Assembly: GCA_965261345.1 (NCBI GenBank) | Contig: OZ253449.1 | Span: forward strand, 32,001 to 96,000 | Reading direction: 5' to 3' | DNA from: Chloroflexota bacterium | Lineage (GTDB): Bacteria; Chloroflexota; UBA11872; VXNJ01 | DNA length: 64,000 nucleotides | Shown: in pieces, positions 14-14,457 of the stretch | Layout of the letters: the number at the start of each line of letters is the position of its first letter | Position numbering within the stretch: position 1 is the stretch's first letter | Notes under the pieces: model-generated | Databases searched by the model: none | Told to the model about the DNA's origin: nothing | The model's input: only the letters and a program-made list of their open reading frames with translations | Program-made: the position numbers and the translations under genes

Positions 14-1102
14 ATGATGACAGAGTGTAATCAGCAGCAGCTCCAGTTCTGGGGACTTGGCCGCCGCCGGATAACGGCCAAGTTCGATGGCGGTCACCTG
101 ACCTCCGATGGTGGTGGGTTGCTGTTGCGGGAAGTGGATCAGCGCATCGGCCTGCTCTCGCGTCTGGCGGGCTGCTTTAGCGACCACCGTAGCCCATCGG
201 CAATAGAGCACAGCGTTGCAGACCTTATCGCCCAGCGCGTCTACGCCCTGGCGCTGGGCTACGAAGACCTAAACGACCACAACGCGCTGCGCTGCGATCC
301 CGCCCTGGCGCTCATGGTGGGCAAGCGTGACCTTACCGGTCAGGACCGGCGGCGCCTGCGCGATAAGGGCAAGCCGCTGGCCTCGGCCAGCGCTCTTAAC
401 CGCCTCGAGCTATCGCGTCCCGATAAGGCGCAGCAGGACCGCTACCGCAAGATCGCGGCTAACTTCTCCGGGATGGACGAGCTGCTCTGCGATCTCTTTC
501 TGGAGGCGCACCAGCATCCTCCCCGGCAGATAGTCCTCGACCTTGACGCCACTTAACGATCCCCTGCACGGGGATCAGGAGGGACGCTTCTTCCACGGCT
601 ACTACCGCTCCTACTGCTACCTTCCGCTGTACGTGTTCGGCGGCGAACACCTGCTGCTGGCAAGGCTGCGTCCGGCCGACCGCGATCCCGGTGCCGGGGT
701 GGTGGCAGAACTCTCGCCGCTGATCGATCGGATCAGATCGGCCTGGCCGGATACCCGTATCATCCTGCGCGCCGATTCGGGCTTTGCCCGCGATCAGACC
801 ATGACCTGGTGCGATAACAACGGTATCTACTATGTCTTCGGTCTGGCCCGCAATAAACGCCTGCAGCTGCTGCTGGGGAGAGCGCTGGCAAAGTCGCGGC
901 GGCGCTATAGCGCAACCGGCAAGGCCTCACGGCGCTTTCGGCAGTTTCGTTACCGCACCATCAGTTCCTGGTCCAGGCGGCGGCGCGTGGTCGGTAAGGC
1001 CGAGCACCTGCCCAAGGGTCCCAATCCCAGATTCTTAGTCACCAACCTGCCCTCCTCCCGTATCGGCAAGCAGGCCCTCTACGAGCAGCTCTACTGTCCG
1101 CG
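14..1102 (+). pseudogene. IS1380-family transposase A, N-terminal part (frameshift near 545-556; interrupted at YCPR by the LSR element)
   Basis: Motifs FDGGxLTSDGG, GYEDLNDH, IVLDLDAT/DPLHGDQEGRFFHGYY, RADSGF, VVGKAE..NPRF; ends YEQLYCPR at the element junction. Confidence 0.92.
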
Positions 1103-1105
1103 GGA

Positions 1106-3172
1106 TCAGGTTGCATACTGCGCCTCATTGCTAACTTGCGACAGTTCGTCGGCGGTCCCCCCGGCGGCATGAGATGAACCGGCCCCGCCCGGCGGCCATT
1201 CGTAAAGACGCACGCCCTTGTCGTCGGCCAGATGGCCCACCAGCAGCCCGCGCCGCCGCCGGTCGCGGACTCCGCTCTCAGATATCCCAAGCCGCCCGGC
1301 GACCTCGTACACGCTAAGCAGGCCCCGATCGCGCAAACGCTGGTAGCGCGTGCGCAGCCCGTGGGCGTAGATCATGGCCTGCACGGCGGTGCGGGTGTAG
1401 CGCGCGCCCCGCGGCGGGCGGTGATCGCGCTGCCGCAGGATCTCCACGATCGCGCCGATCGTGTGGCCTTCAAGCGCTTCGTCGACCAGGGCGACGGTCT
1501 CGACCGGGGTGCGGTACAGCTGGGCGCCCGACATCGGCAGGGGCGCGGTCAGCTCGCGGGCGACCCCGCCGCGCAGACGCACTCCCAGCCTGATCTCCTC
1601 CTGGCCCCTTGACACCGTAACGTCCTCGACCAGCAGCCGCAGCATGCGCTTGCGCTCCCGGGCCGGGGTCCCGGGATCGTTCCACACCCTGGGGAAGTTG
1701 GTCGCAAGTTCGGCGATCCGCCGCTGCTGCTGACTGTCGAACCGTTGCCGATCCTGCTCGCGCCGGCGCTCGTACTCAGCGCCCGCCTGCTCGAGGCGCT
1801 GCAGGCAGGCGTTCCACTCGGCCTCCAGCACGTCGGCGACCATGCGGTTGTGCGGATCGGCCAATCGGTAGCGGCGGCCGGCCAGATCGGCCGCCTCGCG
1901 GACGCGCTGCACGGCCCGGGACCGCAGGCCGTCGGCCTCCCTGAGGCGGCGCTCCAGTTCGTCCTGTACGCCAAGCGCCAGTTGCAGTACCTGCGGAGTC
2001 ATCAGTTCGAGAGCCAGATCGGCTACGGCCCGGTCGATCCCCGCGCCGGCAATCGAGAGGCAGATCGGTCTGGCGTTGGCGATCCCGTCGCGGTGACATA
2101 CGTAGCGGGGCCTGGTGCGGGAGCCGTCGTAGCGCGTCTGCAGGTGGTTCCCGCATTTCCCGCAGATGGCCACCCCCTGCAGAAGGGCCGTCCCCTCGCG
2201 CGCCGGTCCCTGGCGGCGGTCGGCGCCATGGGCCCTGGCCGAGCGCGCCAGCTGGGCCTGGTTGGCCTCGAATCGCTCCCAGGAAATGTAGCCGGGATGG
2301 TGGTCCTTGATCAGGGCGATCCACTCGCTGCGCGGCGCCTTGGCTGACCGGCGGCTGCCGCCGCGCCGCCGCCGCTGGGTGCGTCCGTAGGCGTAAACCC
2401 CGGCGTAACCGGGGTTGTGCAGGATCGACAGCGCACGGCCGTGATCGAGATTGTTCCAGAAGAGTTCGCCCTTGCCCGGGCCCTTGCGGGACCGCAGCGG
2501 GATCAGCAGACCGTTCGCATTAAAGTACGCCACCACAGCCCGCGCCGAGCCGCTGCGCTGGAAGACGTCAAAGAACGTGCGCAGGGTCTCCTGCACCTGG
2601 GCGTCGGGGTCCGGCACCCAGCGGTCGAGAGGGTCGTAGCAGTATCCCACCGGCAGCGCGATCTTGAGCTCGCCGCGCCGCGCCTTGGCCAGAAGTCCAC
2701 CCCGCAGACGGGACTTCATAACGTGCAGCTCGGCTTCCGACATCGTGCCCTTCAGGCCCAGCAGCAGGCGGTCGTTGAAGCTGGACGGATCATATATCCC
2801 ATCCTCGTCCAGGATCAGGGTGTCCGACTGCGCGCACAGCTCCAGCAGGCGCTGCCAGTCGGCGTTATTGCGCGCCAGGCGCGAGACTTCCAGCCCCAGC
2901 ACCATCCCGACGTTGCCCAGGGACACCTCGGTAACCAGGCGTCGGAAGCCTTCGCGGTCCGAGTCGGCCCCCGAACGCCCAAGGTCGGAGTCAATCACGC
3001 ATATCCGGTCGGCATCCCAGCCCAGGGAGATGGCCCGACCCCGCAGGTCGTACTGGCGGCGGGTGCTCTCGCCATGCTCTACCACCTGCCGCAGGCTGGA
3101 CTGGCGCACGTACAGGTACGCCATGCGGTCGAGGTGGTCGGCGGTCACCTTGCCGCGGGTCTGATCGGTCAT
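1106..3172 (-). CDS. Large serine recombinase (resolvase, recombinase and zinc-ribbon domains, C-terminal HTH), 688 aa
   Basis: YVRQSS catalytic motif, DLGRSG, EVSRLARN, ILHNPGYAG, HHPGYISWE, CGKCG...YVC. Confidence 0.95.
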   Translation of the reverse strand: MTDQTRGKVTADHLDRMAYLYVRQSSLRQVVEHGESTRRQYDLRGRAISLGWDADRICVIDSDLGRSGADSDREGFRRLVTEVSLGNVGMVLGLEVSRLARNNADWQRLLELCAQSDTLILDEDGIYDPSSFNDRLLLGLKGTMSEAELHVMKSRLRGGLLAKARRGELKIALPVGYCYDPLDRWVPDPDAQVQETLRTFFDVFQRSGSARAVVAYFNANGLLIPLRSRKGPGKGELFWNNLDHGRALSILHNPGYAGVYAYGRTQRRRRGGSRRSAKAPRSEWIALIKDHHPGYISWERFEANQAQLARSARAHGADRRQGPAREGTALLQGVAICGKCGNHLQTRYDGSRTRPRYVCHRDGIANARPICLSIAGAGIDRAVADLALELMTPQVLQLALGVQDELERRLREADGLRSRAVQRVREAADLAGRRYRLADPHNRMVADVLEAEWNACLQRLEQAGAEYERRREQDRQRFDSQQQRRIAELATNFPRVWNDPGTPARERKRMLRLLVEDVTVSRGQEEIRLGVRLRGGVARELTAPLPMSGAQLYRTPVETVALVDEALEGHTIGAIVEILRQRDHRPPRGARYTRTAVQAMIYAHGLRTRYQRLRDRGLLSVYEVAGRLGISESGVRDRRRRGLLVGHLADDKGVRLYEWPPGGAGSSHAAGGTADELSQVSNEAQYAT

Positions 3173-3439
3173 CGGACCGCCCCGACCGGGGCGCGGTCAC
3201 CAGTTCCAGCAGGACGTCCACGATCTCCGCCGCAGCGCCCGGCGGCGCCGCCACCGGGTCCCGGCGGAGGGTCGGTTCGCAGCCGTCGTTGGCAAGCAGG
3301 GCCGCCAGTCCGCCCCGGCCCACCTGCTCCATCCGGCGCCAGTCGGCGGCCCCGTCGGGCCATAGCGCCTGGCGCCGCAGGCGCTCGTAGGTCGCGGTCG
3401 CGGTGGTTGGGGCAGCGCCCGGATCCAGATCCGGGCGGG

Positions 3440-3892
3440 TTAATTTTTTGCCCGCCGCAGCGCCCGCTCGATGCTGCGCCTATGCACCGACAGGCCGAAG
3501 CGCTCCTCGACCATCCCGACCAGGCGCCGCGACCCGATCCCGGGCCGCTCGGCCCGCACCGCCAACAGGTACTCCATGATCTCGGGCCCCAGCTTGCGGG
3601 CATGGCGCGGACCGGGGCGCTCGGATACAAGGCCGGCCAGGCCGCGCTCGGCGAACGCCCGCCTGGCCTTGTACCAGGTGGGGCGGGTGAACCCGAAGGT
3701 CCTGGCGCTCTGGGCGATCGACATCCCGTCGCGGCAGACCCGGCTAAGCATCTCGTAGCGCACCTGCACCAGGTCACAGGGGTCGAAGAAGGGATGCTCG
3801 CAGAAGAGATCGTCGCGCACCCGTTCCGGGTGGGGGTTGAGCGCCCCGCTGCGCCGCAGGACCTCCTGCTTGCTCTCGCCATCGGTCGCCAT
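3440..3892 (-). CDS. HTH DNA-binding protein of the LSR element (probable start MATDGESK)
   Basis: FFDPCDLVQVRYEML, HTH-like SIAQSARTFGFTRPTWY, GPRHARKL; GGAGGA RBS before the ATG. Confidence 0.8.
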   Translation of the reverse strand: MATDGESKQEVLRRSGALNPHPERVRDDLFCEHPFFDPCDLVQVRYEMLSRVCRDGMSIAQSARTFGFTRPTWYKARRAFAERGLAGLVSERPGPRHARKLGPEIMEYLLAVRAERPGIGSRRLVGMVEERFGLSVHRRSIERALRRAKN

Positions 3893-4082
3893 CGCAGTCC
3901 TCCATGCGGGCAATATGCAAATCCATTGTTGCCCCATCCATCGGATCTGTCAACGCCCTGACGGCCCTTTGGTCGGCACCGTTCGGCCTCCGCAATGCGT
4001 ACTACCATCTGTAGCAACATCCTGTTAATCGCAGTCAGGATGTAGGCTACGGTCGTAATTACGTTTACAGTGGCGGCTCCAA

Positions 4083-4393
4083 TCACTTTACGTCTCCAGC
4101 ATCTTTGGCAAGGCTCTCGACAAACTCGGCAAGCTCCAGCAGATCCCGGGCCCGGAACGGCGATCGGCCCCCGGCGGCGACAACGAACGGGTCCCGGGGC
4201 AGGTAGTCGGTAAATCCGACCGGGAAGGTGACGACGCGGCGGTCCCCGTCGTGGCAGAAGATCCTCTCCCGGCCCCAGCCGGCGGCGACGTTAATGACCC
4301 GGTAGCGCCTGCCGTACAAGGGGTGGTAGGGGTGGATTACGCGGATGCTGACTGTGGCGGGACGTATATCACCCGCAGTTGACGGGGTGGACC
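4083..4393 (-). CDS. DUF5372/Y4bD-like small protein, lacking a start in the integrated state
   Basis: IRVIHPYHPLYG...WGRERIF...DPFV..AGGRSPFR..DLLELA; frame open to the element end. Confidence 0.7.
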
Positions 4394-4726
4394 CGCGGCG
4401 AGATGGAGAACCGCATCAAGGAGATGCAGCTGGCGCTGTTTTCCGACCGCACCAGCGCGGCCACCATTTCGGCCAACCAGCTGCGGCTGTATTTCTCCGG
4501 GTTCGCCTACCTGCTGCTCTATGGGCTGCGGCGACTGGGACTTAGCGGAACCGGTGATGCCCGCCTGCGCTGCGACACGCTGCGGCTACGGTTTCTCAAG
4601 ATTGCCGGCCGCCTGCGGATAACCCATCGCTGCATATGGTTGTCTCTGCCCACGGCCTATCCCTGGCAGAGGGACTTTGCCAGGATGCTGGCCAACCTGG
4701 CCAAGATCCCCATCCACCATATGTAG
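4394..4726 (+). pseudogene. IS1380 transposase A, C-terminal part
   Basis: RGEMENRIKEMQLALFSDRTS..ANQLRLYFS..LRLRFLKIA. Confidence 0.92.
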
Positions 4727-5154: not shown

Positions 5155-5538
5155 TCAGGCTCCCGGGGCGCGCGCCTTTATCGGGGTCCGGCGCATGAGC
5201 CGGGCCAGTATTTGCGCGAACTCGTCCTGGTACGGATAGGCGGAAGAGAACTCCAGCAGGATCCGGCGGGTGCTCTGCCTTACCCGCACCGCCACCTTCA
5301 GGTAGCGCCGGCGGATGGTTCCCGCCAGCGGCCGCGGCGACGGGGTCAGTCGATCGGGCTCGCGATCCTGCCCGGCCGCGGCGGGATCGTCTATTCCCAG
5401 TCGCCGCAGGGCGGAGCAGAGCACGTAGGCAAGACCGGAGAAGTAGAGCCTGAGCTGGTTGGCCATGAACCTTGAGGCGCTGGCGCGGTCGGCATGGAGC
5501 TGCAACTGCTCGTAGATCCGGTTTTCGCAATCGCCACG
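5155..5538 (-). pseudogene. IS1380 transposase B, C-terminal part
   Basis: RGDCENRIYEQLQLHADRASASRFMANQLRLYFS. Confidence 0.9.
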
Positions 5539-5849
5539 GGTCCACCCCGTCAACTGCGGGTGATATACGTCCCGCCACAGTCAGCATCCGCGTAATCCAC
5601 CCCTACCACCCCTTGTACGGCAGGCGCTACCGGGTCATTAACGTCGCCGCCGGCTGGGGCCGGGAGAGGATCTTCTGCCACGACGGGGACCGCCGCGTCG
5701 TCACCTTCCCGGTCGGATTTACCGACTACCTGCCCCGGGACCCGTTCGTTGTCGCCGCCGGGGGCCGATCGCCGTTCCGGGCCCGGGATCTGCTGGAGCT
5801 TGCCGAGTTTGTCGAGAGCCTTGCCAAAGATGCTGGAGACGTAAAGTGA
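5539..5849 (+). CDS. DUF5372/Y4bD-like protein, lacking a start in the integrated state (copy 2)
   Basis: Identical to copy 1; ATG at 8816 joins this frame in the circular form. Confidence 0.7.
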
Positions 5850-5978
5850 TTGGAGCCGCCACTGTAAACGTAATTACGACCGTAGCCTACATCCTGACTG
5901 CGATTAACAGGATGTTGCTACAGATGGTAGTACGCATTGCGGAGGCCGAACGGTGCCGACCAAAGGGCCGTCAGGGCG

Positions 5979-6007
5979 TTGACAGATCCGATGGATGGGG
6001 CAACAAT
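5979..6007 (+). promoter_or_regulatory. Putative sigma70 promoter for the HTH-LSR operon (mirror at 3925-3953)
   Basis: TTGACA-17 bp-AACAAT upstream of GGAGGA RBS and ATG 6040. Confidence 0.5.
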
Positions 6008-6039
6008 GGATTTGCATATTGCCCGCATGGAGGACTGCG

Positions 6040-6492
6040 ATGGCGACCGATGGCGAGAGCAAGCAGGAGGTCCTGCGGCGCAGCGGGGCGCTCAACCCCC
6101 ACCCGGAACGGGTGCGCGACGATCTCTTCTGCGAGCATCCCTTCTTCGACCCCTGTGACCTGGTGCAGGTGCGCTACGAGATGCTTAGCCGGGTCTGCCG
6201 CGACGGGATGTCGATCGCCCAGAGCGCCAGGACCTTCGGGTTCACCCGCCCCACCTGGTACAAGGCCAGGCGGGCGTTCGCCGAGCGCGGCCTGGCCGGC
6301 CTTGTATCCGAGCGCCCCGGTCCGCGCCATGCCCGCAAGCTGGGGCCCGAGATCATGGAGTACCTGTTGGCGGTGCGGGCCGAGCGGCCCGGGATCGGGT
6401 CGCGGCGCCTGGTCGGGATGGTCGAGGAGCGCTTCGGCCTGTCGGTGCATAGGCGCAGCATCGAGCGGGCGCTGCGGCGGGCAAAAAATTAA
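6040..6492 (+). CDS. HTH protein of the LSR element (copy 2)
   Basis: Identical to 3440-3892. Confidence 0.8.
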   Translation: MATDGESKQEVLRRSGALNPHPERVRDDLFCEHPFFDPCDLVQVRYEMLSRVCRDGMSIAQSARTFGFTRPTWYKARRAFAERGLAGLVSERPGPRHARKLGPEIMEYLLAVRAERPGIGSRRLVGMVEERFGLSVHRRSIERALRRAKN

Positions 6493-6516
6493 CCCGCCCG
6501 GATCTGGATCCGGGCG
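6483..6516 (+). promoter_or_regulatory. Putative -1 programmed frameshift signal (mirror at 3416-3449)
   Basis: A_AAA_AAT heptamer, 5-nt spacer, hairpin CGCCCGGATC-TG-GATCCGGGCG; -1 frame open into ORF 6600-6941. Confidence 0.6.
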
Positions 6517-6759
6517 CTGCCCCAACCACCGCGACCGCGACCTACGAGCGCCTGCGGCGCCAGGCGCTATGGCCCGACGGGGCCGCCGACTGGCGCCGGA
6601 TGGAGCAGGTGGGCCGGGGCGGACTGGCGGCCCTGCTTGCCAACGACGGCTGCGAACCGACCCTCCGCCGGGACCCGGTGGCGGCGCCGCCGGGCGCTGC
6701 GGCGGAGATCGTGGACGTCCTGCTGGAACTGGTGACCGCGCCCCGGTCGGGGCGGTCCG

Positions 6760-8826
6760 ATGACCGATCAGACCCGCGGCAAGGTGACCGCCGACCACCT
6801 CGACCGCATGGCGTACCTGTACGTGCGCCAGTCCAGCCTGCGGCAGGTGGTAGAGCATGGCGAGAGCACCCGCCGCCAGTACGACCTGCGGGGTCGGGCC
6901 ATCTCCCTGGGCTGGGATGCCGACCGGATATGCGTGATTGACTCCGACCTTGGGCGTTCGGGGGCCGACTCGGACCGCGAAGGCTTCCGACGCCTGGTTA
7001 CCGAGGTGTCCCTGGGCAACGTCGGGATGGTGCTGGGGCTGGAAGTCTCGCGCCTGGCGCGCAATAACGCCGACTGGCAGCGCCTGCTGGAGCTGTGCGC
7101 GCAGTCGGACACCCTGATCCTGGACGAGGATGGGATATATGATCCGTCCAGCTTCAACGACCGCCTGCTGCTGGGCCTGAAGGGCACGATGTCGGAAGCC
7201 GAGCTGCACGTTATGAAGTCCCGTCTGCGGGGTGGACTTCTGGCCAAGGCGCGGCGCGGCGAGCTCAAGATCGCGCTGCCGGTGGGATACTGCTACGACC
7301 CTCTCGACCGCTGGGTGCCGGACCCCGACGCCCAGGTGCAGGAGACCCTGCGCACGTTCTTTGACGTCTTCCAGCGCAGCGGCTCGGCGCGGGCTGTGGT
7401 GGCGTACTTTAATGCGAACGGTCTGCTGATCCCGCTGCGGTCCCGCAAGGGCCCGGGCAAGGGCGAACTCTTCTGGAACAATCTCGATCACGGCCGTGCG
7501 CTGTCGATCCTGCACAACCCCGGTTACGCCGGGGTTTACGCCTACGGACGCACCCAGCGGCGGCGGCGCGGCGGCAGCCGCCGGTCAGCCAAGGCGCCGC
7601 GCAGCGAGTGGATCGCCCTGATCAAGGACCACCATCCCGGCTACATTTCCTGGGAGCGATTCGAGGCCAACCAGGCCCAGCTGGCGCGCTCGGCCAGGGC
7701 CCATGGCGCCGACCGCCGCCAGGGACCGGCGCGCGAGGGGACGGCCCTTCTGCAGGGGGTGGCCATCTGCGGGAAATGCGGGAACCACCTGCAGACGCGC
7801 TACGACGGCTCCCGCACCAGGCCCCGCTACGTATGTCACCGCGACGGGATCGCCAACGCCAGACCGATCTGCCTCTCGATTGCCGGCGCGGGGATCGACC
7901 GGGCCGTAGCCGATCTGGCTCTCGAACTGATGACTCCGCAGGTACTGCAACTGGCGCTTGGCGTACAGGACGAACTGGAGCGCCGCCTCAGGGAGGCCGA
8001 CGGCCTGCGGTCCCGGGCCGTGCAGCGCGTCCGCGAGGCGGCCGATCTGGCCGGCCGCCGCTACCGATTGGCCGATCCGCACAACCGCATGGTCGCCGAC
8101 GTGCTGGAGGCCGAGTGGAACGCCTGCCTGCAGCGCCTCGAGCAGGCGGGCGCTGAGTACGAGCGCCGGCGCGAGCAGGATCGGCAACGGTTCGACAGTC
8201 AGCAGCAGCGGCGGATCGCCGAACTTGCGACCAACTTCCCCAGGGTGTGGAACGATCCCGGGACCCCGGCCCGGGAGCGCAAGCGCATGCTGCGGCTGCT
8301 GGTCGAGGACGTTACGGTGTCAAGGGGCCAGGAGGAGATCAGGCTGGGAGTGCGTCTGCGCGGCGGGGTCGCCCGCGAGCTGACCGCGCCCCTGCCGATG
8401 TCGGGCGCCCAGCTGTACCGCACCCCGGTCGAGACCGTCGCCCTGGTCGACGAAGCGCTTGAAGGCCACACGATCGGCGCGATCGTGGAGATCCTGCGGC
8501 AGCGCGATCACCGCCCGCCGCGGGGCGCGCGCTACACCCGCACCGCCGTGCAGGCCATGATCTACGCCCACGGGCTGCGCACGCGCTACCAGCGTTTGCG
8601 CGATCGGGGCCTGCTTAGCGTGTACGAGGTCGCCGGGCGGCTTGGGATATCTGAGAGCGGAGTCCGCGACCGGCGGCGGCGCGGGCTGCTGGTGGGCCAT
8701 CTGGCCGACGACAAGGGCGTGCGTCTTTACGAATGGCCGCCGGGCGGGGCCGGTTCATCTCATGCCGCCGGGGGGACCGCCGACGAACTGTCGCAAGTTA
8801 GCAATGAGGCGCAGTATGCAACCTGA
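6760..8826 (+). CDS. Large serine recombinase, copy 2
   Basis: Identical 688-aa translation; stop codon lies 3 nt inside the element end. Confidence 0.95.
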   Translation: MTDQTRGKVTADHLDRMAYLYVRQSSLRQVVEHGESTRRQYDLRGRAISLGWDADRICVIDSDLGRSGADSDREGFRRLVTEVSLGNVGMVLGLEVSRLARNNADWQRLLELCAQSDTLILDEDGIYDPSSFNDRLLLGLKGTMSEAELHVMKSRLRGGLLAKARRGELKIALPVGYCYDPLDRWVPDPDAQVQETLRTFFDVFQRSGSARAVVAYFNANGLLIPLRSRKGPGKGELFWNNLDHGRALSILHNPGYAGVYAYGRTQRRRRGGSRRSAKAPRSEWIALIKDHHPGYISWERFEANQAQLARSARAHGADRRQGPAREGTALLQGVAICGKCGNHLQTRYDGSRTRPRYVCHRDGIANARPICLSIAGAGIDRAVADLALELMTPQVLQLALGVQDELERRLREADGLRSRAVQRVREAADLAGRRYRLADPHNRMVADVLEAEWNACLQRLEQAGAEYERRREQDRQRFDSQQQRRIAELATNFPRVWNDPGTPARERKRMLRLLVEDVTVSRGQEEIRLGVRLRGGVARELTAPLPMSGAQLYRTPVETVALVDEALEGHTIGAIVEILRQRDHRPPRGARYTRTAVQAMIYAHGLRTRYQRLRDRGLLSVYEVAGRLGISESGVRDRRRRGLLVGHLADDKGVRLYEWPPGGAGSSHAAGGTADELSQVSNEAQYAT

Positions 8827-8829
8827 TCC

Positions 8830-9464
8830 CGCGGACAGTATTCCAGTTCGTACAGGTCGCGTCCCGCTACCTGCTCGGTCGGCAGGCTGGTTACGACGAA
8901 GCGGGCGTTGGGCCGCGGCGGCCGGGGCGCGCCGTCCCGGCCGGTATGCCCGGGCAGGTACTCGGCCTTGCCCACCACCCGTCGGGTCCTGGACCAGGTC
9001 CCGGCAAGGGTCTGGTGGGTAAAGCCGCGGAAGCGCCGCGAGGGCTCCCCGCTTGCAAGGCAGCGCCGCCGCGAGCGCTCGAGCGGGCGGGCGATCTTTT
9101 TCTCCAGGCGCGGGTTGCGCGCCAGGCCGAAGAGGTAGTCGATCCCCTCCCGTTCGCACCAGGTCATGATCGGATCGCGGCCAAAGCCCGAGTCGCCGCG
9201 CAATACGATCTGCGTTTCGGGCCAGGCGGAGCGGATCTTCTCTACCAGCGGCGCGATCTCGGACACCGCATCCGACCCCGGGGCGCTATCGGAGGGGCGC
9301 AGGCGGCAAAGCAGCAGATGCTCGCCGCAAAACACGTACAGCGGTAGATAGCAATAGGAGTCGTAATACCCGTGGAAGAACCGTCCTTCTTGCTTGCCGT
9401 GCAGCTTCACGTCGGTGGCGTCCACGTCCAGGACGATGCGCGCCGGGGGAGCGGGATGAGATTC
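8830..9464 (-). pseudogene. IS1380 transposase B, central part (N-terminus lost at the IS110 junction)
   Basis: RIVLDVDATDVKLHGKQEGRFFHGYY..RGDSGF..VVGKAEYL..DLYELEYCPR. Confidence 0.9.
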
Positions 9465-10824
<1,360 letters not shown>

Positions 10825-11098
10825 TTTTAAAGACCTTTATCCGCCCGGGAGACACGGGCATGCGCGATGCCTTTCCCGGCGCGGACAAAGTCAGGTCAAC
10901 CGGTCGGGAGCGGCCATGTGCTTCCAGCGCTTCAGAGTGCCTTTCCTGGACCTGCGCCCCGATCGGTCTGGCCGCGATTGCAAAGCCCTGTGGAGAGTCC
11001 GCGCTTCGAGCAGCCAGTATAGGAACCGGCAGGCATCGCCCAAGACCTGTACCCGAACAACCCCTATCGCGCAACCAGACCCTGAGGAGGTCATCTCA

Positions 11099-12337
11099 AT
11101 GAACGATGAGCCCCGCGCCGTCGCCGGCGTGGACTGGGCCACCGGCAGCCACCAGGTCTGCGTCGTAGACGCTGGCGGCAAGGAACTGGGTAACCGCAGC
11201 TTCCCGCACTCGGGTCAGGGCCTGACGGCGATGGCCGACTGGATCCTGGAGCTGGCGGCGACAGATCCGCAATATGTGTTAGTCGGCATCGAGACCCCGC
11301 ACGGGCCGGTGGTGGAGACGCTGCAGGGCCGCGGCTTCCGGGTCTTTGCCATCAGCCCGCGGCAACTGGACCGGTTCCGCGATCGCTACTTCCCTTCCGG
11401 GGCCAAGGACGACAGCCTGGACGCCCGCGTGCTGGCCGATGCCTTGCGCTCGGACCGCTACGCCTACCGTGAACTTACCCTGCCCGAACCGCGGGTGCTG
11501 GCGCTGCGCGAGCTATCGCGCAGCTCCGAGGAACTTACCAGAGAGCGGGTGCGCCTGCAGAACCGCCTGCGCAATCAGCTGTGGCGCTACTACCCGCAGA
11601 TCCTGGAACTGAGCGATGACGTTGCCGAGAACTGGATCATGGACCTGTGGGAGGCCGCGCCCACCCCGGATCGGGCCCGCCGGATCACCCGCGGGCGGAT
11701 CGAGAAGATCCTGAAGGGCAACCGCATCCGCCGCATCGATGCCGATCGGGTCCGGGAAGTGCTGGGGCAACCGGCGCTGGCGGTGGCCCCGGGTACGGCG
11801 GACGCCGCCGCGTCCGCGATCCGGATCACGATAGCGCGCCTGCGCCTTAGCGGGCGGCTGCTGAAGGAAGTTAACGCCGCGATCGATTCGCTGCTGGAAG
11901 GGTTCGACGAAGACCCCGAAGCGGGCGGGCAGCGCGACGCTAAGATCCTGCGCTCCATATCCGGAGTCGGCAGGACCGTCCTGGCCACGCTGCTCTCAGA
12001 GGCCCATGACCCGATCAGGCGACGGGATGTAGGAGCCCTGCGCGCGTTGAGCGGATCGGCGCCGGTGACAAAGCGTTCCGGCAAGGGGATTATCGTGGTG
12101 CGGAGGATGGCGGTGCACAACCGTGTGCGCAACGCCTGCCACTACATGGCGGGTACGGCCATCCAGCACGATAAGAAGAGCAGATTGCGCTACGACGCGC
12201 TGCGCGCGCGCGGCTGCTCGCACTCGCGGGCGCTGCGCACGGTGGCCGATCGCCTACTGGCGATGGCCTGTGCGATGCTGCGCGATCAGACCCTGTACGA
12301 CCCTCTGCACACTACCCGTGGCAGGGAGGTGGCCTAA
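11099..12337 (+). CDS. IS110-family transposase 2 (probable start MNDEPR)
   Basis: GVDWA, GIETPHG, GAKDDSLDA, SGSAPVTKRSG; GAGGAGG RBS; TTGACA near the right end (~12515). Confidence 0.92.
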   Translation: MNDEPRAVAGVDWATGSHQVCVVDAGGKELGNRSFPHSGQGLTAMADWILELAATDPQYVLVGIETPHGPVVETLQGRGFRVFAISPRQLDRFRDRYFPSGAKDDSLDARVLADALRSDRYAYRELTLPEPRVLALRELSRSSEELTRERVRLQNRLRNQLWRYYPQILELSDDVAENWIMDLWEAAPTPDRARRITRGRIEKILKGNRIRRIDADRVREVLGQPALAVAPGTADAAASAIRITIARLRLSGRLLKEVNAAIDSLLEGFDEDPEAGGQRDAKILRSISGVGRTVLATLLSEAHDPIRRRDVGALRALSGSAPVTKRSGKGIIVVRRMAVHNRVRNACHYMAGTAIQHDKKSRLRYDALRARGCSHSRALRTVADRLLAMACAMLRDQTLYDPLHTTRGREVA

Positions 12338-12533: not shown

Positions 12534-14457
12534 CGAACAGCCAGGCAAACTGGAGTATGGACGCGGGTGAAAGTCCCGCTGGCAAAGGGCTGGCCGCCCA
12601 TGCCGAACCGCGAGCCGTGCGCAGGCCGTCGCGAGACGGTCGGTGAAGCGTCGGTAGCGGGGCATGCGGGCCGGGCTATCGAGCGCCGAAATACCGGTTC
12701 GGAGCGCCGAGACCGTGATTCTGGTCGAAGGCAACACCGACAGCGGCGATATTGGCAAGTCGCTGATCTGGGCTCCGCGGCGTCGAAGAACTCGCGCACG
12801 TATGCACGTCCATCCCCGGGACCTGGGAGACCTGTCCAGCGCCCCAACGCACTCGCAGCATTGGGGCCGCATCGGGAAGGAAGGAGTTTCGCAATCCGAT
12901 GATGCACGCCGGACAGAAGTCTGATGCGGCCATAGTACCTGCGAAGGCGGCGAACAATGGGGCGTAAAACCCCGGCGGAGCCGCCGGAGGAAAGGGCCGC
13001 AAGCAAGAGGAACGCGCCAGGCACCGGCACGGACTACACCCAGGGGTGGGTTCCCGTGTCACCCGGAGCCGAACGCGTACGGCAACACGCCAAAGAGAAC
13101 CCAGAGGAGAAACTCACCGCGCTCTTACACCACATAGACCTTGACGCGCTAAGGGATGCGTTCTACGGGCTAAAACCCAATGCCGCTCCCGGCGCCGACG
13201 GGATCACGTGGAGGATGTACGAGGAAAACCTGGAAGAGAAACTTCTCGACCTTAAAGACCGCGTGCACAAAGGAGCATACCGAGCGACCCCCGTCCTGCG
13301 GGTAGCGATACCCAAACCGGACGGCGGGAAGCGAGCGCTTGGAATCGCATCCATAGAGGACAAGATCCTGCAGCGGGCGGTGTGTCAACAGATCCTTGAC
13401 CCGATCTATGAATCGGAGTTCGCCGGGTTCGCATACGGGTTCCGGCCAAAAAGATCAGCGCACGACGCGCTGGACGCCCTGGCCTACGCCATCGAACGGA
13501 GAAAAGTCAACTGGATTCTTGACGCCGACATAAAAGGCTTCTTCGACCATCTCGACCGCGAGCGACTCATCTCGTTCCTGGGAGAGCGAATCGGAGACAA
13601 CCGCGTCCTGCGCCTAATCCGCAAATGGCTGAGCACCGGAGTAATGGAAGCCGGAGAACTATCCGACAGCGTGCAGGGAACACCGCAAGGGGCGCCGATA
13701 TCGCCGCTGCTTGCCAACGTGTACCTGCACAAAGTCCTGGACTCATGGTTTGCCAAGGAATGGCGACCCAAAAGCGCCAGCGGCGAGGTCTACATCGTCA
13801 GGTATGCCGATGACTTCGTCCTGGGATTTGAGTACCGCAGCGATGCGGTCAGATTTGCAAAGGATTTGCGAGACAGGCTAGAAGAGTACGGATTAGAGCT
13901 TGCAGCCCACAAGACCCGCCTGATCGAGTTCGGCAGATACGCGATCGAGAATCGCCGCCAGCGTAACGACAGCCGTCCGGAGACTTTTGACTTCCTCGGC
14001 CTAACGCATTACTGCCGGACGATGAGCAACGGAAAGTTCGGACTGGGACGCAAGCCCATCGCCAAGCGCGTCAGACGCACCCTGAAGGCGATCAAGGAAC
14101 GACTACGCATGCGCATGCACGACGATCCCGCGCAGACCGGGCAATGGCTCGGGTTGGTGCTGCGGGGCTGGCTCGGCTATTACGCCGTCCCAACCAGCTC
14201 CACGTACCTGAGGAGTTTCAAATATGAACTCGAGCGCCAGTGGTTACGCAGCCTGCGCCGCCGGTCGCAGCATGATCGATTCCCATGGGGGCGCCTGCGC
14301 GCATTGAGCACTGCCCATCTCCCAACCGTCTCCATCCTCCACCCATGGCCCGCCGACCGTTTTGCCGTCAAACACTCAAGCTAAGAGCCCGGTGCGTTAA
14401 CGCGCATGCCGGGATCCGTGCGGGGGGCACCGGGTAACCGGTGTTCCTACCGCGAAC
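12534..14457 (+). mobile_element. Group II intron (5' end missing, replaced by IS110 end)
   Basis: GGGTGAAAGTCCC and other domain I-III motifs; domain V/VI GAGCCCGGTGCG..GCATGCCGGGATCCGTGCGGGGG..CCTACCGCGAAC. Confidence 0.85.
12957..14384 (+). CDS. ltrA: Group II intron reverse transcriptase/maturase (no endonuclease domain)
   Basis: APGADG, PKPDGGKRALGI, YGFRP, GTPQG, YADD, FDFLG. Confidence 0.95.
   Translation: MGRKTPAEPPEERAASKRNAPGTGTDYTQGWVPVSPGAERVRQHAKENPEEKLTALLHHIDLDALRDAFYGLKPNAAPGADGITWRMYEENLEEKLLDLKDRVHKGAYRATPVLRVAIPKPDGGKRALGIASIEDKILQRAVCQQILDPIYESEFAGFAYGFRPKRSAHDALDALAYAIERRKVNWILDADIKGFFDHLDRERLISFLGERIGDNRVLRLIRKWLSTGVMEAGELSDSVQGTPQGAPISPLLANVYLHKVLDSWFAKEWRPKSASGEVYIVRYADDFVLGFEYRSDAVRFAKDLRDRLEEYGLELAAHKTRLIEFGRYAIENRRQRNDSRPETFDFLGLTHYCRTMSNGKFGLGRKPIAKRVRRTLKAIKERLRMRMHDDPAQTGQWLGLVLRGWLGYYAVPTSSTYLRSFKYELERQWLRSLRRRSQHDRFPWGRLRALSTAHLPTVSILHPWPADRFAVKHSS

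Follow-up and report, generated by a model that had tools for sequence, protein, structure and literature searches.

The DNA considered here is a 64,000-nt stretch (the window) of the genome of a Chloroflexota bacterium (contig OZ253449.1, positions 32,001 to 96,000). It contains a mobile element, encoding a large serine recombinase (LSR), in which the gene for a small protein of the DUF5372 family is divided between the two element ends: the body stands at the left end without a start of its own, and a Shine-Dalgarno (SD)-like motif, the start codon and the first five codons stand at the right end. Joining the ends through the crossover core, as in the excised circle, completes the gene. We regard it as close to certain that this split layout is the anatomy of the gene at the level of sequence; transcription and translation in the joined form are what this anatomy predicts. 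Homologous elements bear the split gene out as real, and it is conserved among relatives that, by their record titles, belong to several bacterial phyla.

A gene divided between two element ends

The element (copy 2 in the window, positions 5537-8831, plus strand) measures 3,295 nt counting both CG cores and carries, on one strand and in this order, the DUF5372 body, a helix-turn-helix (HTH) gene, a small open reading frame (ORF2) and the gene for the 688-aa LSR. The features that bear on the split gene are as follows.

5155 to 5536, minus strand: host IS1380 transposase gene after the insertion (copy 2), with a conserved Glu among its first codons
5537 to 5538, plus strand: crossover dinucleotide CG of attL, TT in most relatives; identity between near-identical elements mostly falls just outside the core
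5539 to 5849, plus strand: body of the DUF5372 gene, without its own start; PF17342 at 67.9 bits (gathering cut-off 25)
5553 to 5558, plus strand: attP inverted repeat, left arm, at a distance of 14 nt from the core; it also forms codons 11-12 of the joined gene
6760 to 8826, plus strand: LSR, 688 aa; PF00239 at 68.1, PF07508 at 68.6 and PF13408 at 25.2 bits (cut-off for PF13408, 25.3)
8806 to 8818, plus strand: block of the SD-like GAGG (8806-8809), the right arm of the attP repeat (8810-8815) and the start codon of the split gene (8816-8818)
8816 to 8831, plus strand: first five codons of the split gene plus one base, ending in the attR core (8830-8831)
8832 to 9425, minus strand: host IS1380 transposase gene before the insertion (copy 2)

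The GAGG motif is separated by 6 nt from the ATG at 8816, which lies within the final LSR codons (LSR stop at 8824-8826). When position 8831 is joined to 5539 in silico, a 108-aa ORF runs from this ATG to 5849. An earlier reading, made from the sequence alone (the sequence-only reading), had described this arrangement, and its particulars were borne out: a script reproduced the in-frame 108-aa product through the CG core, the coordinates of the GAGG-N6-ATG overlapping the last LSR codons proved exact, and recomputation found no ATG ahead of the HP motif in 5539-5849. The body (5541-5849) has no in-frame ATG or GTG at all, and its sole NTG start, TTG at 5613, lies past the HPxHP motif. In the integrated state, the body frame extends without a stop through 7, 23 and 23 codons of host DNA in the three copies of the element, and a host-flank start in this frame occurs in copy 2 only (TTG at 5472, with no SD-like motif before it).

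Copy 1 lies inverted at 1101-4395 of the window (minus strand) and is identical to copy 2; its layout is therefore the same, as had been claimed, with the split-gene ATG at 1116. The third copy, at 1054948-1058242 of the genome under study (G000), differs from the window copies by 2 substitutions (99.94% identity). All three interrupt an IS1380 transposase gene on the opposite strand, and in all three the two flanks linked by a single CG rebuild the transposase frame through its conserved Y-C-P-R-G-x-x-E-N motif. Because removing the element restores this frame, the element ends are fixed independently of the split gene. The inverted repeat (8810-8815 and 5553-5558) is symmetric, 14 nt to each side of the core. 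The element thus shows the LSR hallmarks of a 2-bp core, flanking inverted repeats and precise target restoration, and PF00239, PF07508 and PF13408 are all present in each of 60 aligned LSRs of the family at E<=0.01.

Natural DNA does contain the joined form. A search of JGI metagenome contigs with a degenerate attP pattern yielded seven matches, three of which (L089, L092 and L093; L numbers denote collected loci) carry the LSR C-terminus, its stop, an SD motif, a start codon, the core and a complete DUF5372 ORF (119, 102 and 103 aa), on contigs too short to separate a circle from a head-to-tail tandem. The same joined attP stands in L088 (at 1301) and L090 (at 437), where the DUF5372 gene ends abruptly behind the HP motif; downstream of it in L090 come ordinary host genes, the joined site being fixed outside an intact element. 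The two other matches, L091 and L094, were rejected as chance matches, L094 being an ordinary integrated element. The N-terminus of the database protein P0045 is likewise that expected of a joined product. The pattern, which needs a TT core and is blind to the CG lineage, had no match in viral contigs or in 401 genomes of the phylum; a homology search found no relatives of the element in viral contigs, and the joined attP of the window element was not found in the G000 assembly.

The sequence-only reading further held that the gene is switched on only after excision. The separation of start and body in the integrated state and the conserved frame speak for a dependence on joining; the restriction to the excised circle does not stand in full, as a head-to-tail tandem would complete the gene as well. 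A part in directionality, in targeting or in circle maintenance, which that reading put forward for the product, would be a candidate role in each case.

Conservation of the start and frame across the junction

We surveyed 89 loci, namely seven plasmid records, the best 80 of 540 GTDB matches, the window and a diverged genomic copy. Right ends were located via a fuzzy 10-base motif near the LSR stop, with the start slot outside this motif. This left 78: four loci ended before the LSR stop, two were without the motif, and five fuzzy matches that were not the end motif were removed by hand (L004, L018, L030, L072 and L078); L060 was set by eye. Left ends were chosen in 73 loci by core and inverted repeat, ignoring the frame; that of L001 was corrected by homology with L005, and that of L076, a mis-pick, was dropped.

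The start slot holds ATG in 56 and GTG in 20 of the 78 right ends (76 together); in the other two, ATG follows in frame at the next codon. Fourteen nt past the end motif, the dinucleotide reads TT in 74 of 78. At the left ends, the distance from core to HP motif is 59 nt in 65 loci, 56 nt in four and 62 nt in two, with two mis-picks; as these three values account for 71 of 73, indels come in threes. Under the automatic end rule, 66 of 68 both-ended loci are open, and the loci bearing a stop number 2, 61 and 48 in frames 0, +1 and +2, respectively. After correction of L001 and removal of L076, the frame between right-end start and HPxHP is open in 66 of 67. The sequence-only reading had made its proposal depend on a frame conserved across attP and on the lack of a conserved internal start; in the homologs, the frame is conserved, and a TTG equivalent to that at 5613 exists in just 9 of 77 loci. 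Among 52 loci dereplicated at 90%, one sequence has an in-frame stop against 17.5 expected from column permutation, a value reached in none of 2,000 permutations, with most of the signal in the junction codons (13.8 expected, 1 observed). The boundaries are supported by 11 contig ends that fall at most 6 nt from a predicted core, and element lengths run from 3,275 to 3,435 nt across the family (the mis-picked L076 excluded).

The start block is not kept in place by LSR coding, since the LSR stop wanders around it (offsets of +11, +4, -8, -1 and others). In 72 of 78 right ends, the stop nevertheless keeps to the range of -14 to +11 nt around the start slot, which suggests translational coupling, an arrangement typical of partner subunits. 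In all 78 it precedes the core (at most 11 nt after the start slot; 8826 versus 8830-8831 in the window). The body is under purifying selection, though it has no start of its own: the ratio of nonsynonymous to synonymous changes (pN/pS) is 0.17 over HPxHP plus 20 codons in 14 independent pairs. Taken together, the alignments describe a conserved predicted protein whose sole conserved start lies at the far end of the element.

It could be objected that this pattern is an artefact of att geometry, with the SD motif and ATG forming a recombinase-binding sequence and DUF5372 being translated from an internal or host start. The start does directly adjoin the attP repeat, RefSeq annotations of DUF5372 genes use internal or upstream starts, and NTG codons occur inside the body in 31 of 72 loci and in the host flank in 16 of 63. 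These internal codons, however, are scattered over 10 positions with at most eight loci at any one, a single one has an SD motif, and 41 of 72 loci have none at all; flank starts preceded by an SD-like 4-mer are found in just 4 of 63 loci, 40-127 codons away. Among 134 database DUF5372 proteins, the annotated N-terminus precedes the first motif by anything between 1 and 128 residues, an inconsistency that follows from the gene start lying at the other element end. Furthermore, both right ends without ATG or GTG in the slot have the in-frame ATG one codon on, and the two arms mirror each other in the 5-bp attP repeat (identity 0.63-1.0 at its 5 positions, 67 loci), whereas the left arm has no mirror image of the start slot (0.0, 0.0 and 0.1) and only a weak one of GAGG (0.33-0.66). 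Start slot and GAGG are therefore unlikely to be symmetric recombinase contacts, although att sites can be asymmetric. On balance, we give the artefact very little credence.

Several results nonetheless weigh against the split gene or qualify its support. L035 has an in-frame stop at the junction and is the one exception to the open frame. Fixed att geometry explains part of the frame conservation: in the spacer beyond the att arm, stop avoidance is modest (0 versus 3.55 expected, P 0.019), and for codons 2-5 alone it is not significant (0 versus 1.55 expected, P 0.17). The SD motif in 69 of 78 right ends is partly circular evidence, as GAGG belonged to the search motif, and the surveyed loci are related, so that all counts overstate independence. 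The first 21 codons are nearly unconstrained as protein (pN/pS 0.79-0.83, 14 independent pairs); given that the body is conserved, this near-neutral leader appears to deliver the start rather than structure. Finally, in four Logan contig sets (X2, X5, X7 and X13) compared with 5337-9030, none of the eight listed joints runs from 8831 to 5539, a result that is no evidence of absence because such contigs drop rare forms.

A possible switch and the role of its product

We envisage recombination of the element itself as a translational on/off switch. In the integrated state, one internal promoter would transcribe the HTH gene, ORF2 and the LSR gene, and the transcript would leave the element through the SD motif, the start codon and five codons into host DNA, an orphan start; the DUF5372 body, upstream of the promoter and without a start, would yield no protein. 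Excision by the LSR would join the ends at the 2-bp core to form attP, placing DUF5372 at the end of the operon with a start that overlaps the LSR stop. The 108-aa protein may then shift the LSR towards attP x attB integration or damp further excision. The non-replicating circle would thereby return to the chromosome, where integration would split the gene again and turn it off. ORF2 or an HTH-ORF2 fusion would be available for excision in the integrated state. The features of this operon, besides the LSR, are the following.

5979 to 6007, plus strand: putative sigma-70-like promoter for HTH, ORF2 and LSR, downstream of the DUF5372 body; 10 of 12 consensus positions match
6040 to 6492, plus strand: HTH gene with an IS481/IS630-like N-terminal HTH; HTH_32 at 43.6 bits; SD motif at 6029-6033
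6483 to 6489 and 6495 to 6516, plus strand: A-run slippery heptamer and 9-bp hairpin, a candidate -1 frameshift site from HTH to ORF2
6483 to 6941, plus strand: ORF2 frame, -1 relative to HTH; conserved part about 6483-6760; no known family

The -35 and -10 boxes are conserved in the consensus of 77 intergenic regions. A scan for a plus-strand terminator near the right end found none; one weak 5-bp candidate stands at 7336, inside the LSR gene. ORF2 lies in the -1 frame of HTH in 71 of 85 loci, in 69 of these behind a run of at least six A; 52 of these 69 have an ORF2 without ATG, and in L005 both genes share one frame. It is thus likely that a -1 frameshift or slippage yields an HTH-ORF2 fusion, a second hidden junction in the element. 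An Atlas search with ORF2 returned nothing at or above 0.9. The hairpin after the A-run is strong in the window (z -3.2); as a conserved frameshift stimulator it was rejected, the family mean being z 0.1 (79 loci) against 0.28 in the control.

The DUF5372 model is a small β-barrel with two C-terminal helices (model confidence, pLDDT, of 81, low only at the ends). Its fold matches are SH3/KOW-like, the best having Z 5.8 and a root mean square deviation of 2.1 over 49 aligned residues, and Foldseek gave no match at E<=0.001. The invariant residues include the two His of HPxHP, and W39, W60, R43 and R76 are conserved at 90% or more. With a median net charge of -1 and an isoelectric point of 6.3 (61 members), the protein is not typical of a nucleic-acid binder. 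The family has 2,618 representatives at 50% identity (E<=0.001). A sequence search of the PDB gave two matches only (E 0.95 and 1.9), PHROGs holds no family for the window protein, a word-index protein search with the body returned one protein, and an Atlas search returned only DUF5372 clusters.

Since the protein is near-neutral, SH3-like in its model, probably coupled to the LSR and predicted to arise solely from a circle that lacks a replication gene (none was seen among the ORFs and domain matches of the element), we favour the view that DUF5372 is a circle-only partner or cofactor of the LSR that promotes re-integration, and give it somewhat less than an even chance. Two points tell against this view. 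The known LSR cofactors, recombination directionality factors (RDFs), favour excision and not integration (PMC11795197), and we found no precedent for a cofactor acting in the other direction. In addition, the fold match is generic and names no function: 23 chains reach Z>=5 and none Z>=8.

DUF5372 might instead be a classical RDF made only by the circle, which would promote excision, block re-integration and mobilize sibling copies by positive feedback. RDFs bind the LSR where its second DNA-binding domain meets the coiled coil, and they stimulate attL x attR while inhibiting attP x attB. A small protein whose gene lies so close to the LSR stop would suit such a role, and an SH3-like RDF is conceivable, as RDFs are described as LSR-binding proteins without a common fold (PMC11795197). 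The element is also often multicopy, with three copies in G000 and two to five PF17342 matches in each of five plasmid records. A factor that appears only after excision, however, could not set off the initial excision, and a circle lacking a replication gene would be left stranded by it. Better placed for excision are ORF2 or HTH-ORF2, made in the integrated state, and the LSR itself, which in 37 of 60 cases has a C-terminal HTH_17/MerR-type domain beyond the usual LSR domains (in the window's own LSR, region about 8590-8730, HTH_17 is not matched at E<=0.01). HTH_17 domains resemble excisionases, and because so many of the LSRs carry one, excision may not need the DUF5372 protein. We therefore consider a classical RDF unlikely.

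Another candidate role is that of a circle-sensing regulator of the element's own operon, acting at the transcriptional or RNA level, alone or via the HTH protein, and not as a recombinase partner. The best fold matches include NusG/Spt5 KOW domains and OapB, and a conserved direct repeat and promoter directly follow the stop of the gene. These fold matches, on the other hand, are weak, many unrelated SH3 domains score equally well, and the net charge is near neutral, so that a regulator seems improbable to us. In the consensus of 77 loci, the repeat is a motif of 15-18 bp that occurs twice right after the DUF5372 stop and is followed by the -35 and -10 boxes; the window (5860-6010) has one clear copy, near 5862-5880. 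It is a candidate operator for the HTH protein.

Circle-only expression would also fit a toxin or addiction factor that penalizes cells whose circle stays unintegrated. L088 and L090, where the joined attP is set among host genes and the DUF5372 gene is truncated past the HP motif, would agree with this, though they represent a single event. No toxin family is among the Pfam and NCBIfam matches of the window protein, nor, as noted, is there a PHROGs family; PemK/CcdB-type toxins are absent from the fold matches listed, which is not an exclusion. We hold a toxin to be highly improbable.

Targets, relatives and comparison with known systems

The insertion sites have a common feature. In 46 of 58 restored empty sites, a Glu codon follows the core at a distance of four codons, on the opposite strand (background 0.07), which we take to be the catalytic Glu of the DDE triad of these transposase families. 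A scan of 46 flanks found 37 that fit transposase models at corresponding positions (IS21 in 20, IS3 in eight, IS481 in six and ISNCY in three). Judged by these restored genes, the element family parasitizes insertion sequences (ISs), with IS21, IS3, IS481, ISNCY and IS1380 among its targets. This regularity could be read as the work of a protein, DUF5372, that steers the circle to transposase genes. The sequence preference of the LSR plus selection could suffice, however: the pooled attB matrix, which is partly circular as it was learned from the targets themselves, amounts to about 19 bits, and the median leave-one-out target is equalled or exceeded by 26 sites in G000. As the matrix alone makes sites rare, the data require no protein targeting factor, and we think such a role quite improbable.

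A same-strand subgroup (L043, L044, L048, L055, L064 and L075) sits in another type of gene, just before a C-x(1-2)-C-G-G motif; the right flanks of L040, L046, L051 and L076 also belong to it, and L044 and L055 have non-TT cores. The target gene is presumably IS91-like. L114 and L116 (NZ_CP088102.1, near 305.8 kb and 53.7 kb) have a more distant DUF5372-like ORF, apparently with no start near the motif, and their flanks diverge just upstream of the ORF; they probably represent a sister element family.

The closest named counterpart is a cluster on pNGR234a of Sinorhizobium fredii NGR234 (NC_000914.2, 33989-37258), for which we assume the names y4bA-D and NGRIS-4. It has the same gene order (DUF5372, HTH, small ORF, LSR), 49.5% LSR identity, the same end motifs and split layout and a length of 3.3 kb, and RefSeq gives its DUF5372 gene an internal start. 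It differs in its TT core and its other DDE-transposase targets, as against CG and IS1380 for the window element. By these shared traits, the window element is a member of the pNGR234a-type family of four-gene LSR elements.

Several known systems share parts of this logic; the sources are compared as far as their relevant passages go. In archaeal suicidal tyrosine integrases (SSV1, pTN3 and pT26-2), attP lies inside the integrase gene, which integration splits, and self-disrupting recombinases are said to occur only in archaea (PMC8371274). Here, too, attP lies within a gene of the element that is whole only in the circular form; unlike in those systems, the recombinase is a serine recombinase that stays intact (its stop precedes the core), the hosts are bacteria, and the split takes only the SD motif, the start and five codons off an accessory gene. 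In mycobacteriophage BPs, integration removes a C-terminal degradation tag of the repressor and so activates it, both forms being translated (PMC4557955). The common trait is an attP in a non-integrase gene that serves as a state switch; the difference is that the present gene is split at codon 6, loses its start and would be silenced by integration. Finally, circularization joins a promoter to the int gene of ICEKp1 and ICEclc (PMC13023037), and a junction-made promoter is indicated for tnpX of Tn4451/Tn4453 by a title among the references of that paper; the LSR of Tn4451 needs no RDF (PMC5704250). As in these cases, circularization places an expression signal of one end beside a gene of the other, but theirs serves recombinase transcription, whereas here a translation start and coding sequence of a separate gene are joined and the promoter is internal. 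No -35/-10 hexamers stand out at the junction in the attP column table, no promoter scan of the joined sequence having been made.

The family also resembles the multi-targeting LSR clade of Durrant et al. in using many degenerate attB sites, and 63% of that clade carry DUF4368 (PMC10083194). This domain was found in none of the 60 LSRs here at E<=0.01, a feature that is not universal in the clade either. The passages of PMC10083194 compared here mention neither transposase-gene targets nor a split gene. By title and abstract, we found no description of the split-gene layout in a search that most subscription literature and older work on pNGR234a fall outside, and no literature naming DUF5372.

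Tentatively, and with more doubt than confidence, we propose that these elements form a widespread, undescribed class of serine-recombinase ISs that parasitize other ISs before the catalytic Glu and may encode an 'inverse RDF', an SH3-like integration factor with a gene that excision assembles and integration destroys, in a self-resetting cycle that would need no external signal. A mobile element could in this way sense its own state, with recombination building or breaking the translation start of a dedicated gene; the known cases that we found, as far as their passages go, instead split an integrase, trim a repressor or build a promoter. The function has become directly testable with the definition of the true N-terminus, the two att sites and the target motif. 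If the protein does favour integration, it would be a kind of LSR cofactor that we did not find described, in a group of enzymes that serve as genome-engineering tools.

Further relatives and insertion sequences accompany the element. A diverged sister element in G000 (L096, C1:139030-142310, 71%) has a TT core, a frameshifted LSR gene and the same split layout with a 108-codon joined ORF, and has inserted close to the beginning of an IS110 transposase gene that lies on the opposite strand. A truncated relative in another genome (G098) is 90% identical and likewise combines a CG core with an IS1380 target. A fourth IS1380 transposase of G000 (C1:255238-256044), 70-75% identical to the host gene of copy 1, has no element between its two parts, and the host gene of copy 1 (14-1100 of the window) has a frame break near 545-556. 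This part of the window is a dense nest of mobile DNA (14-1100, 9665-10612, 10820-12337 and 12957-14384), in which copy 2 is followed by two IS110-like transposases and a group II intron-type reverse transcriptase, as named from their translations.

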